Positions 17,101-23,100 of a DNA stretch of 64,000 nt are shown here, one piece after another (position 1 is the first letter of the stretch; each line of letters opens with the position of its first letter). The stretch lies in NCBI RefSeq assembly GCF_016903815.1, contig NZ_CP069973.1, one strand, 5' to 3'. This DNA comes from Escherichia coli (lineage in GTDB: Bacteria; Pseudomonadota; Gammaproteobacteria; Enterobacterales; Enterobacteriaceae). Position numbers: made by a program.

Positions 17101-20100
17101 TAAACGTCAGGCAGTGACGAACCCGCAAAACACCCTGTTTGCGATTAAACGCCTGATTGGCCGCCGCTTCCAGGACGAAGAAGTACAGCGTGATGTTTCC
17201 ATCATGCCGTTCAAAATTATTGCTGCTGATAACGGCGACGCATGGGTCGAAGTTAAAGGCCAGAAAATGGCACCGCCGCAGATTTCTGCTGAAGTGCTGA
17301 AAAAAATGAAGAAAACCGCTGAAGATTACCTGGGTGAACCGGTAACTGAAGCTGTTATCACCGTACCGGCATACTTTAACGATGCTCAGCGTCAGGCAAC
17401 CAAAGACGCAGGCCGTATCGCTGGTCTGGAAGTAAAACGTATCATCAACGAACCGACCGCAGCTGCGCTGGCTTACGGTCTGGACAAAGGTACTGGCAAC
17501 CGTACTATCGCGGTTTATGACCTGGGTGGTGGTACTTTCGATATTTCTATTATCGAAATCGACGAAGTTGACGGCGAAAAAACCTTCGAAGTTCTGGCAA
17601 CCAACGGTGATACTCACCTGGGTGGTGAAGACTTCGACAGCCGTCTGATCAACTACCTGGTTGAAGAATTCAAGAAAGATCAGGGCATTGACCTGCGCAA
17701 CGATCCGCTGGCAATGCAACGCCTGAAAGAAGCGGCAGAAAAAGCGAAAATCGAACTGTCTTCCGCTCAGCAGACCGACGTTAACCTGCCGTACATCACT
17801 GCAGACGCGACCGGTCCGAAACACATGAACATCAAAGTGACTCGTGCGAAACTGGAAAGCCTGGTTGAAGATCTGGTAAACCGTTCCATTGAGCCGCTGA
17901 AAGTTGCACTGCAGGACGCTGGCCTGTCCGTATCTGATATCGACGACGTTATCCTCGTTGGTGGTCAGACTCGTATGCCAATGGTTCAGAAGAAAGTTGC
18001 TGAGTTCTTTGGTAAAGAGCCGCGTAAAGACGTTAACCCGGACGAAGCTGTAGCAATCGGTGCTGCTGTTCAGGGTGGTGTTCTGACTGGTGACGTAAAA
18101 GACGTACTGCTGCTGGACGTTACCCCGCTGTCTCTGGGTATCGAAACCATGGGCGGTGTGATGACGACGCTGATCGCGAAAAACACCACTATCCCGACCA
18201 AGCACAGCCAGGTGTTCTCTACCGCTGAAGACAACCAGTCTGCGGTAACCATCCATGTGCTGCAGGGTGAACGTAAACGTGCAGCTGATAACAAATCTCT
18301 GGGTCAGTTCAACCTGGATGGTATCAACCCGGCACCGCGCGGCATGCCGCAGATCGAAGTTACCTTCGATATCGATGCTGACGGTATCCTGCACGTTTCC
18401 GCGAAAGATAAAAACAGCGGTAAAGAGCAGAAGATCACCATCAAGGCTTCTTCTGGTCTGAACGAAGATGAAATCCAGAAAATGGTACGCGACGCAGAAG
18501 CTAACGCCGAAGCTGACCGTAAGTTTGAAGAGCTGGTACAGACTCGCAACCAGGGCGACCATCTGCTGCACAGCACCCGTAAGCAGGTTGAAGAAGCAGG
18601 CGACAAACTGCCGGCTGACGACAAAACTGCTATCGAGTCTGCACTGACTGCACTGGAAACTGCTCTGAAAGGTGAAGACAAAGCCGCTATCGAAGCGAAA
18701 ATGCAGGAACTGGCACAGGTTTCCCAGAAACTGATGGAAATCGCCCAGCAGCAACATGCCCAGCAGCAGACTGCCGGTGCTGATGCTTCTGCAAACAACG
18801 CGAAAGATGACGATGTTGTCGACGCTGAATTTGAAGAAGTCAAAGACAAAAAATAATCGCCCTATAAACGGGTAATTATACTGACACGGGCGAAGGGGAA
18901 TTTCCTCTCCGCCCGTGCATTCATCTAGGGGCAATTTAAAAAAGATGGCTAAGCAAGATTATTACGAGATTTTAGGCGTTTCCAAAACAGCGGAAGAGCG
19001 TGAAATCAAAAAGGCCTACAAACGCCTGGCCATGAAATACCACCCGGACCGTAACCAGGGTGACAAAGAGGCCGAGGCGAAATTTAAAGAGATCAAGGAA
19101 GCTTATGAAGTTCTGACCGACTCGCAAAAACGTGCGGCATACGATCAGTATGGTCATGCTGCGTTTGAGCAAGGTGGCATGGGCGGCGGCGGTTTTGGCG
19201 GCGGCGCAGACTTCAGCGATATTTTTGGTGACGTTTTCGGCGATATTTTTGGCGGCGGGCGTGGTCGTCAACGTGCGGCGCGCGGTGCTGATTTACGCTA
19301 TAACATGGAGCTCACCCTCGAAGAAGCTGTACGTGGCGTGACCAAAGAGATCCGCATTCCGACTCTGGAAGAGTGTGACGTTTGCCACGGTAGCGGTGCA
19401 AAACCAGGTACACAGCCGCAGACCTGTCCGACCTGTCATGGTTCTGGTCAGGTGCAGATGCGCCAGGGTTTCTTTGCCGTGCAGCAGACCTGTCCACACT
19501 GTCAGGGCCGCGGTACGCTGATCAAAGATCCGTGCAACAAATGTCATGGTCATGGTCGTGTTGAGCGCAGCAAAACGCTGTCCGTTAAAATCCCGGCAGG
19601 AGTGGACACTGGAGACCGCATCCGTCTTGCGGGTGAAGGTGAAGCGGGCGAGCATGGCGCACCGGCAGGCGATCTGTACGTTCAGGTTCAGGTTAAACAG
19701 CACCCGATTTTCGAGCGTGAAGGTAACAACCTGTATTGCGAAGTCCCGATCAACTTCGCTATGGCAGCGCTGGGTGGCGAAATCGAAGTACCGACCCTTG
19801 ATGGTCGCGTCAAACTGAAAGTGCCTGGCGAAACCCAGACCGGTAAGCTGTTCCGTATGCGCGGTAAAGGCGTCAAGTCTGTTCGCGGCGGTGCGCAAGG
19901 TGACTTGCTGTGCCGCGTTGTCGTCGAAACACCGGTAGGTCTGAACGAGAAGCAGAAACAGCTGCTGCAAGAGCTGCAGGAAAGCTTCGGTGGCCCAACC
20001 GGTGAGCACAACAGCCCGCGTTCAAAGAGCTTCTTTGATGGTGTGAAGAAGTTTTTTGACGACCTGACTCGCTAACCTCCCCAAAAGCCTGCCTGTGGGC

Positions 20101-23100
20101 AGGCCAGGGTAAAAATAGGGTGCGTTGAAGATATGCGAGCACCTGTAAAGTGGCGGGGATCACTCCCCGCCGTTGCTCTTACTCGGATTCGTAAGCCGTG
20201 AAAACAGCAACCTCCGTCTGGCCAGTTCGGATGTGAACCTCACAGAGGTCTTTTCTCGTTACCAGCGCCGCCACTACGGCGGTGATACAGATGACGATCA
20301 GGGCGACAATCATCGCCTTATGCTGCTTCATTGCTCTCTTCTCCTTGACCTTACGGTCAGTAAGAGGCACTCTACATGTGTTCAGCATATAGGGAGCCTC
20401 GGGTTGATGGTAAAATATCACTCGGGGCTTTTCTCTATCTGCCGTTCAGCTAATGCCTGAGACAGATAGCCTCAAGCACCCGCCGCTATTATATCGCTCT
20501 CTTTAACCCATTCTGTTTTATCGATTCTAATCCTGAAGACGCCTCGTATTTTTATGGCGTAATTTTTTAATGATTTAATTATTTAACTTTAATTTATCTC
20601 TTCATCGCAATTATTGACGACAAGCTGGATTATTTTTGAAATATTGGCCTAACAAACATCGCCGACTGACAACAAATTAATTATTACTTTTCCTAATTAA
20701 TCCCTCAGAAATCCTGACCTTAAGCTATGATTATCAGGGCTTAGGGTCACTCGTGAGCGCTTACAGCCGTCAAAAACTCATCTCATCGCTAATGGCACAA
20801 ATCCTTCAATGGTTCGTAAAAAACGAATTATTCCTACACTATAATCTGATTTTAACGATGATTCGTGCGGGGTAAGATAGTAAAAACGATCTATTCACCT
20901 GAAAGAGAAATAAAAAGTGAAACATCTGCATCGATTCTTTAGCAGTGATGCCTCGGGAGGCATTATTCTTATCATTGCCGCTATCCTGGCGATGATTATG
21001 GCCAACAGCGGCGCAACCAGTGGATGGTATCACGACTTTCTGGAGACGCCGGTTCAGCTCCGGGTTGGTTCACTCGAAATCAACAAAAACATGCTGTTAT
21101 GGATAAATGACGCGCTGATGGCGGTATTTTTCCTGTTAGTCGGTCTGGAAGTTAAACGTGAACTGATGCAAGGATCGCTAGCCAGCTTACGCCAGGCTGC
21201 ATTTCCAGTTATCGCCGCTATTGGTGGGATGATTGTGCCGGCATTACTCTATCTGGCCTTTAACCATGCCGATCCGATTACCCGCGAAGGGTGGGCGATC
21301 CCGGCGGCTACTGACATTGCTTTTGCACTTGGTGTGCTGGCGCTGTTGGGAAGTCGTGTTCCGTTAGCGCTGAAGATCTTTTTGATGGCTCTGGCTATTA
21401 TCGACGATCTTGGGGCCATCATTATCATCGCATTGTTCTACACTAATGACTTATCGATGGCCTCTCTTGGTGTCGCGGCTGTAGCAATTGCGGTACTCGC
21501 GGTATTGAATCTGTGTGGTGTACGCCGCACGGGCGTCTATATTCTGGTTGGCGTGGTGTTGTGGACTGCGGTGTTGAAATCGGGGGTTCACGCAACCCTG
21601 GCGGGGGTAATTGTCGGCTTCTTTATTCCTTTGAAAGAGAAGCATGGGCGTTCTCCAGCGAAGCGACTGGAGCATGTGTTGCACCCGTGGGTGGCGTATC
21701 TGATTTTACCGCTGTTTGCATTTGCTAATGCTGGCGTTTCACTGCAAGGCGTCACGCTGGATGGCTTGACCTCCATTCTACCATTGGGGATCATCGCTGG
21801 CTTGCTGATTGGCAAACCGCTGGGGATTAGTCTGTTCTGCTGGTTGGCGCTGCGTTTGAAACTGGCGCATCTGCCTGAGGGAACGACTTATCAGCAAATT
21901 ATGGCGGTGGGGATCCTGTGCGGTATCGGTTTTACTATGTCTATCTTTATTGCCAGCCTGGCCTTTGGTAGCGTAGATCCAGAACTGATTAACTGGGCGA
22001 AACTCGGTATCCTGGTCGGTTCTATCTCTTCGGCGGTAATTGGATACAGCTGGTTACGCGTTCGTTTGCGTCCATCAGTTTGACAGGACGGTTTACCGGG
22101 GAGCCATAAACGGCTCCCTTTTCATTGTTATCAGGGAGAGAAATGAGCATGTCTCATATCAATTACAACCACTTGTATTACTTCTGGCATGTCTATAAAG
22201 AAGGTTCCGTGGTTGGCGCAGCGGAGGCGCTTTATTTAACACCACAAACCATTACCGGGCAGATTCGGGCGCTGGAAGAGCGCCTGCAAGGCAAATTATT
22301 TAAACGCAAGGGACGTGGTCTCGAACCCAGCGAGCTGGGAGAGCTGGTCTATCGCTATGCCGATAAAATGTTCACCTTAAGCCAGGAAATGCTGGATATT
22401 GTGAACTATCGCAAAGAATCCAATTTATTGTTTGACGTTGGCGTGGCTGATGCACTTTCTAAACGCCTGGTCAGTAGCGTACTTAACGCCGCAGTGGTAG
22501 AAGGCGAGCCGATTCATCTTCGCTGCTTCGAATCCACCCACGAAATGCTGCTGGAGCAATTAAGTCAGCATAAACTGGATATGATCATTTCCGACTGTCC
22601 GATAGATTCTACGCAGCAGGAAGGTCTGTTCTCCGTGAGAATTGGCGAATGTGGCGTGAGTTTCTGGTGTACAAATCCACCACCGGAAAAACCGTTCCCG
22701 GCTTGTCTGGAAGAACGGCGGCTTTTGATTCCTGGGCGACGTTCAATGTTAGGGCGCAAATTGCTTAACTGGTTTAACTCCCAGGGATTAAACGTAGAAA
22801 TCCTCGGCGAGTTTGATGATGCCGCGTTGATGAAAGCTTTTGGTGCGATGCACAATGCAATCTTCGTTGCCCCAACGCTTTATGCATATGACTTTTATGC
22901 CGATAAAACTGTCGTAGAAATTGGTCGCGTCGAAAATGTGATGGAAGAGTACCATGCTATTTTTGCTGAGCGGATGATTCAGCACCCGGCGGTACAGCGA
23001 ATCTGCAATACGGATTATTCTGCGCTTTTTAGCCCAGCGGCACGTTAATCGGCAGCTCCCCCAAAGTTAAGGTGGGGGAGATAGATTAGTTGTACATTAC

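Follow-up and report, generated by a model that had tools for sequence, protein, structure and literature searches.

An uninterrupted hokC/mokC/sokC type I toxin-antitoxin locus with a complete set of predicted regulatory elements in Escherichia coli

The closest described relatives of the locus considered here, the hokC/mokC/sokC type I toxin-antitoxin locus of Escherichia coli, are hok/mok/sok of plasmid R1 and hokC (gef) of E. coli K-12. The hokC locus, its regulatory elements, its disruption in K-12 by the insertion sequence (IS) IS186 and the existence of IS-free wild alleles have been known since 1999, the IS-free hokC of strain ECOR24 having reportedly been characterised by Pedersen and Gerdes in that year. 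According to one source, K-12 gef is hokC with IS186 downstream, thought to disrupt the fbi element and mRNA processing, and hokC of ECOR24 is described with a ~330-nt transcript and a cis-encoded SokC (PMC3562002). A second source puts the insertion 22 bp downstream of hokC's reading frame and likewise has fbi disrupted (bioRxiv 10.1101/2020.03.04.975888). The conformational switch of hok mRNAs is summarised in PMC9841398. The present analysis concerns a 64,000-nucleotide stretch of E. coli DNA (contig NZ_CP069973.1 of assembly GCF_016903815.1), referred to here as the window. With a probability of about 0.9, its region at about 20083-20493 is a species-typical, uninterrupted hokC/mokC/sokC locus with complete elements. 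That this locus also behaves as a regulated hok/sok module in vivo, an argument from analogy, appears probable, though with distinctly less confidence.

The gene order in the window is thrLABC ... dnaK (16940-18856), dnaJ (stop codon ending at 20075), a minus-strand Hok open reading frame (ORF), nhaA (20917-22083) and nhaR, which places the ORF at the dnaJ-nhaA position that hokC occupies in K-12. Its product matches Pfam HOK_GEF (E=4.6e-24; 84 bits, cut-off 22), and the Rfam model RF01794 ('sok') matches 20481..20329 over its full length (model positions 1-157, 120.5 bits, E=7e-27, gathering score 59). Ungapped alignment of window positions 20156-20920 with K-12 revealed 19 differences, none of them within 20179-20388; the hokC and mokC frames are therefore identical to those of K-12, and the preliminary description of this DNA was right to call these ORFs of 50 and 69 aa intact. 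The arrangement of mokC in frame with hokC is also annotated in K-12. An 80-aa GTG-start version of mokC returned by ORF finding is a mere mechanical extension of the 69-aa frame. Over 19900-20920 the best match was strain 7/2, a human faecal isolate from Sweden, with 100% identity over 1021 bp and the annotation dnaJ - mokC - nhaA at the same place.

The window and K-12 part ways in the 103-bp spacer that separates the stop codons of dnaJ (20075) and hokC (20179). In K-12 (record L001) a 1337-bp IS186 copy, whose annotation reads IS4-like IS421 family transposase, splits the same two flanks; it has 22-bp terminal repeats and is bordered by GGGATCACTCCC as a direct repeat. The element entered the G4N6C4 stem-loop, 22 nt beyond the end of hokC, and shifts fbi and the terminator 1.3 kb away; this agrees with the IS186 interruption that had been stated for K-12 and with the fbi disruption given in the literature. 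The absence of any such element from the window was likewise borne out when the spacer (20076-20178) was re-examined. It matches IS-free E. coli genomes end to end, is ungapped against both K-12 flanks, holds one copy of the 12-bp target and contains no IS186 terminal inverted repeats. As the spacer is also collinear with 3814 genomes, the chance that an IS element or a remnant of one was overlooked between dnaJ and hokC is negligible.

IS186 is polymorphic at this site across the species. A 201-bp probe spanning the insertion site, required to be covered over at least 80%, recovered the IS-free state in 3814 of 5425 complete E. coli genomes (about 70%). The IS186-hokC junction in the K-12 orientation was found in 822 genomes and the junction in the opposite orientation in 940, counts that overlap to a small extent and take in some matches at other hok loci. 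The IS-free hokC is the majority form, and K-12 belongs to the minority. Strain PKF11 (L087, IS at 886-2222) carries IS186 in the opposite orientation with the same 12-bp duplication. A seemingly different insertion in strain MLI104K2 was rejected, being an IS186 copy garbled by homopolymer assembly errors. More generally, the GGGG-N6-CCCC stem-loop of hok 3' ends (window 20152-20171) is a recurrent IS186/IS421 target: it is used in both orientations at hokC, and in a hok paralogue of roughly 75% identity, found on an IncY/IncFIB plasmid and a viral contig (L005 563-; L070 780-), the equivalent stem-loop carries IS186 too.

The uninterrupted 3' end is predicted to allow the long-range pairing on which the hok switch depends. 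Positions in the hok mRNA are numbered such that nt n is window position 20482-n on the minus strand. The minimum free energy (MFE) fold of an RNA running from 20481 to either 20113 or 20083 pairs nt 1-12 with nt 352-364, and an R1-type hok mRNA folded as a control shows a 5'-3' fold-back likewise. In the full-length ensemble the tac-fbi pairing has P=0.99 and the mok Shine-Dalgarno (SD) sequence pairs with ucb at P=0.80, with SD-dcb and tac-ucb both at 0.0; in an RNA whose 3' end lies at 20149, tac-ucb reaches P=0.73 and SD-dcb P=0.81. When the final 36 nt were shuffled, the mean fold-back probability fell to 0.075, with values of at least 0.5 in 3 of 100 shuffles. For transcripts of K-12 that extend 450-644 nt into IS186, pairing of the 5' with the 3' end is absent at 450 and at 550 nt and reaches no more than P=0.097 at 644 nt; these RNAs go directly to tac-ucb (0.74-0.87) and SD-dcb (0.91-0.99) pairing in the predictions. 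The published conformational switch is thus reproduced, at the level of prediction, for the window sequence. The preliminary phrase 'complete, regulated hok/sok module' holds for the sequence and the predicted structure, and 'complete' is best limited to these.

Comparative data provide further evidence. A Hok alignment, used to scan viral contigs, yielded 80 prophage or phage-plasmid loci, which together with plasmid loci and an R1-type copy gave 51 distinct mRNAs. The tac sequence aligns with the R1 hok mRNA 5' end, GGCGCUUGAGG, and is invariant in 50 relatives; the fbi motif (C/U)(C/U)UCAANGCACCC is in place in all relatives except the IS-interrupted ones. When the window-derived structure was applied to the 51 sequences, pairing was kept in 98.9% of cells for tac/fbi and in 99.7% for tac/ucb, both helices being nearly invariant, with ucb itself and the 5-bp core of SD/dcb invariant in all 51 loci. 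The 3' fold-back complementarity raised in the preliminary description is present and kept in 50 related hok loci. Compensatory changes were seen at 5 of the 8 pairs of the 3' stem-loop, which was paired in 99% of cells, and at 4 of 13 in the 5' hairpin. Overall, double changes affected 28 pairs, whereas shuffles gave 15.3 and slid controls 10-14. Within E. coli, every listed regulatory element of ATCC 25922 (B2), O157:H7 Z1833 (E) and KO11FL/W (B1) is identical to that of the window, and none of tac, ucb, dcb, the stem-loop and fbi differs in sequence in K-12.

The R1 system, compared through an IncFII plasmid copy, shares the 5' tac, ucb, mok SD and dcb, Sok promoter boxes in the same place, and a GC-rich stem-loop past the stop followed by fbi and a terminator hairpin, with the same predicted fold-back and refolding. 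It differs in that the tac/fbi helix is compensated (GGCGC/GCGCC in R1, GGGUGC/GCACCC in the window), in a longer 5' hairpin of the leader, and in a toxin only 42% identical to HokC at the amino-acid level. R1 hok is also plasmid-borne and gives post-segregational killing, whereas hokC is chromosomal and is not known to do so. The prophage and phage-plasmid loci are closer: their Hok proteins are 82-88% identical, the whole mRNA is about 75% identical at the nucleotide level, and the elements recur in unchanged order; the loci differ by an 18-nt insertion in the leader hairpin, by a mok placed in another frame in some cases, and by residing on mobile elements, whereas hokC has a fixed core-genome site. 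The in-frame mok had been considered a hokC peculiarity tied to a 1-nt deletion in the sok -10, an idea that was dropped, since in-frame mok is the commonest arrangement among the 51 loci, R1 type included. ECOR24, going by its published description, resembles the window in its lack of IS186, its transcript of ~330 nt and its cis-encoded SokC.

The elements that make up the locus are collected in Table 1. The range first given for it, 20076-20440, proved about 50 bp too short at the 5' end: the first 41 nt of the hok mRNA, tac among them, and the promoter -10 lie beyond it.

Table 1. Features of the hokC/mokC/sokC locus in the window; mRNA positions follow the numbering given in the text.
Feature	Window position	mRNA nt	Strand	Description
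hokC promoter -10	20488-20493		-	TATAAT; 6 nt upstream of the putative RNA start; kept in five E. coli phylogroup representatives
tac	20470-20481	1-12	-	GGGUGCUUGAGG; putative mRNA 5' end; RF01794 match begins at 20481
5' hairpin		13-47	-	between tac and ucb
ucb	20424-20430	52-58	-	AAGCCCC; in folding, pairs with the mok SD in full-length mRNA, with tac in the trimmed form
mok SD	20397-20400		-	GAGG; 8 nt upstream of the mok AUG (20388)
mokC leader frame	20388..20179		-	69 aa from ATG 20388; in frame with hokC, stop codon common to both
Target-hairpin loop	20379-20385		-	CUGAACA; first four nt are YUNR-type CUGA
dcb	20364-20369	113-118	-	pairs with the mok SD in truncated mRNA to give the predicted SokC target hairpin
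hok SD and AUG	AUG at 20331		-	stop codon of hokC/mokC at 20179
hokC coding sequence (CDS)	20331..20179		-	50 aa + stop; Hok/Gef family membrane toxin; identical to K-12 WP_000809168.1
UACG motif	20190-20193		-	Tyr47 codon of hokC; A at 20192 is a putative TadA A-to-I editing site (Tyr to Cys)
3' stem-loop	20152-20171	311-330	-	GGCGGGGA-GUGA-UCCCCGCC; folds; holds the G4N6C4 IS186 target
Empty IS186 target site	20156-20167		.	GGGATCACTCCC; single copy in the window; duplicated around IS186 in K-12 and PKF11
fbi	20118-20130	352-364	-	CUUCAACGCACCC; pairs with 5' tac in full-length mRNA (MFE)
Terminator hairpin (candidate)	20083-20104		-	GCCUGCC-CACA-GGCAGGC + UUUU; directly after the dnaJ stop; hairpin in the 399-nt fold
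sokC promoter	20345-20373		+	-35 TTGACC (20345-20350), 17-nt spacer, weak -10 CACTCT (20368-20373)
sokC RNA, 55 nt	20380-20434		+	placed by ungapped transfer of the K-12 sokC coordinates; overlaps the mok start

At the 3' end, the stem-loop past the hokC stop sits where the R1 stem-loop ends the 361-nt truncated hok mRNA, and it may be the point at which 3' exonucleolytic trimming stops, giving an active mRNA of roughly 330 nt. The hairpin at 20083-20104 looks like a canonical intrinsic terminator serving hokC and not dnaJ, judged by its sequence; related hok loci have a hairpin and U-run about 10 nt past fbi. Its U-run is found on the minus (hokC) strand only, the continuation on the dnaJ strand being CAGGGTAAAAATA. 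A consensus promoter and terminator scan called neither of the two promoters (hokC and sokC) nor the hokC terminator, and as all three deviate from the scan rules it is uninformative here: the terminator was passed over because it has only 4 U, and the hokC promoter because the scan needs both hexamers.

The antisense partner was placed from the K-12 sokC coordinates, which we take to be 16952-17006. The corresponding window region aligns without gaps and differs only at 20394 and 20395. SokC is predicted to fold (-21.5 kcal/mol) into a hairpin of 17 pairs, preceded by 12 unpaired nt at the 5' end and followed by a UUUUCU tail, and the first 6 nt of SokC are complementary to the loop of the target hairpin, which is of the YUNR type whose significance is established in the hok family. 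To locate the sokC promoter, the region was aligned with the R1 sok promoter, TTGCGC-17-TATCCT, and with relatives whose -10 reads TAACCT or TAATCT. Relative to most of these loci, a 1-nt deletion in hokC drops the first T of the -10; both R1 and the prophage loci have a better hexamer. In K-12, the mokC/sokC duplex has been captured as an RNase III substrate, and knock-down of sokC by CRISPR interference (CRISPRi) is strongly deleterious (bioRxiv 10.1101/2020.03.04.975888). Expression and function of SokC have been shown for K-12 only; SokC may be expressed in the window strain as well.

The weak -10 raises the question of whether the locus merely seems complete, its sok promoter or fold-back elements having been disabled by point mutations. 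The degenerate hexamer with its missing T, and one tac/fbi pair that is G-U here and G-C in the plasmid and prophage relatives, would fit such damage. Both features, however, are found in every E. coli hokC allele examined, including that of K-12, where SokC is functional; a trait common to all alleles is not a strain-specific defect. The search for sok promoter mutations returned none, the region being base-for-base the same in K-12, ATCC 25922 (B2), O157:H7 and W. The leader differs from that of K-12 at 20394, 20395 and 20467 only, no predicted helix is broken, and the fold-back is still predicted at P=0.99. Disabling mutations are thus a very improbable explanation.

The annotation of the locus deserves comment in its own right. 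In the records examined, RefSeq/PGAP leaves both the 69-aa mok frame and sokC unannotated and calls the 153-nt hokC CDS 'mokC ... toxin MokC' (L086 15286-15438; L001 2624-2776). Although the name of RF01794 is 'sok antitoxin', its 153-nt match (20329-20481, minus) lies on the strand of the hok mRNA leader, and so differs in strand and extent from the 55-nt SokC on the plus strand; the match locates the locus and does not tell the antitoxin strand. In a sub-threshold Rfam search of 19950-20950, sok and rpsL_pseudo were the only matches, and the latter (17.6 bits against a gathering score of 70) was dismissed as chance.

A working model of the locus was drawn by analogy with R1 hok/sok. The consensus -10 promoter would drive a transcript of ~370-400 nt from ~20481, ending near fbi or at the 20083-20104 hairpin. 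In this full-length RNA, tac and fbi would be paired and the mok SD held by ucb, leaving the message untranslated and a poor SokC target. The fbi element would be lost as the 3' end is slowly trimmed as far as the stem-loop at 20152-20171; tac would then pair with ucb, and the mok SD would move into the dcb hairpin, whose loop is complementary to the SokC 5' tail. SokC would pair with the trimmed RNA, and RNase III would cut the duplex. Upon loss of SokC, mokC would be translated and hokC by coupling, yielding a membrane-damaging 50-aa peptide, which is presumably toxic in the window strain too. TadA editing at the UACG of the Tyr47 codon would add a cysteine. In K-12, TadA edits hokC mRNA at 9%, recoding the Tyr aligned with Cys46 of HokB (PMC12214031).

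Several points weigh against reading the locus as a complete and regulated module. The hokC promoter is without a good -35, and the sokC -10 retains 2 of 6 consensus positions, the most degenerate among the 51 loci. The transcript ends and the processing of the hokC mRNA have been placed by inference. Covariation of tac/fbi was not seen in the prophage and plasmid set, in which the helix is near-invariant and MAFFT misaligned the R1 3' end; because of this near-invariance, the helix is supported by conservation, thermodynamics and a by-eye comparison with R1 rather than by covariation. Finally, hokC of ECOR24 reportedly gave no post-segregational killing and no rifampicin activation (bioRxiv 10.1101/2025.08.07.668861). 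This negative result indicates that a complete set of cis-elements is no guarantee of hok/sok-like behaviour.

The sequence could therefore be intact and yet physiologically inert, a conserved silent remnant that never releases toxin naturally. A 1999 study is said to have concluded that chromosomal hok loci are inert, and the ECOR24 result, obtained with an IS-free hokC, points the same way. So do natural null alleles and the tolerance of IS186 in the hokC 3' untranslated region by about 30% of genomes. An example of the former is Ecol_745, where CAG has become TAG at codon 3 of hokC. Set against this, the identity of the regulatory elements in B2, E, B1 and the window fits purifying selection. 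The deleterious effect of sokC knock-down in K-12 suggests that HokC can be made, and is toxic, even from an IS-disrupted locus, and HokC is toxic when over-expressed (bioRxiv 10.1101/2025.08.07.668861). On balance inertness appears rather unlikely, while remaining the strongest of the competing explanations, and a complete, regulated hokC/mokC/sokC locus is preferred. As separate observations on these alleles, Ecol_745 keeps all RNA regulatory elements unchanged despite the hokC stop, its product being annotated as a shorter Hok/Gef protein, and HokC of O157:H7 Z1833 carries an A6V substitution.

Other features of the window lie apart from this locus. The nhaR-rpsT interval (23086-29509) contains a complete chaperone-usher fimbrial operon encoding adhesin, usher, chaperone and major subunit, the putative adhesin (319 aa) having no Pfam match; it is followed by espX1, a type III effector gene. 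The K-12 counterpart of this interval is reduced to a fimbrial pseudogene fragment beside IS1A. Further Rfam matches above the gathering score are the Hfq-binding RNA STnc490 (2112-2235, 146 bits), tpke11 in the dnaK-dnaJ spacer (18867-18944, 70 bits) and the small RNA ES003 (39073-39125, 87 bits); the thr leader lies at 5084-5203.

A bolder proposition is that the IS186 polymorphism at hokC is a recurrent functional switch rather than neutral damage. The hok 3' stem-loop doubles as a perfect G4N6C4 target for IS186. With the element in place the fold-back lock is gone, and by prediction the mRNA would be SokC-sensitive and translatable from the start. If this were so, K-12-type strains would be continuously SokC-dependent, IS-free strains would hold a reserve of inert mRNA, and hokC/sokC results from K-12 would not be transferable to most E. 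coli. We consider this improbable at present. What the present data add to the picture established since 1999 is only that the IS-free form is the majority state, at about 70% of complete genomes. K-12 is accordingly an atypical strain for hokC, and studies of hokC/sokC regulation, of TadA editing or of persistence carried out in K-12 use a transcript without the fold-back lock. IS-free strains like that of the window would be the proper background in which to address the physiological role of a complete chromosomal hok locus.

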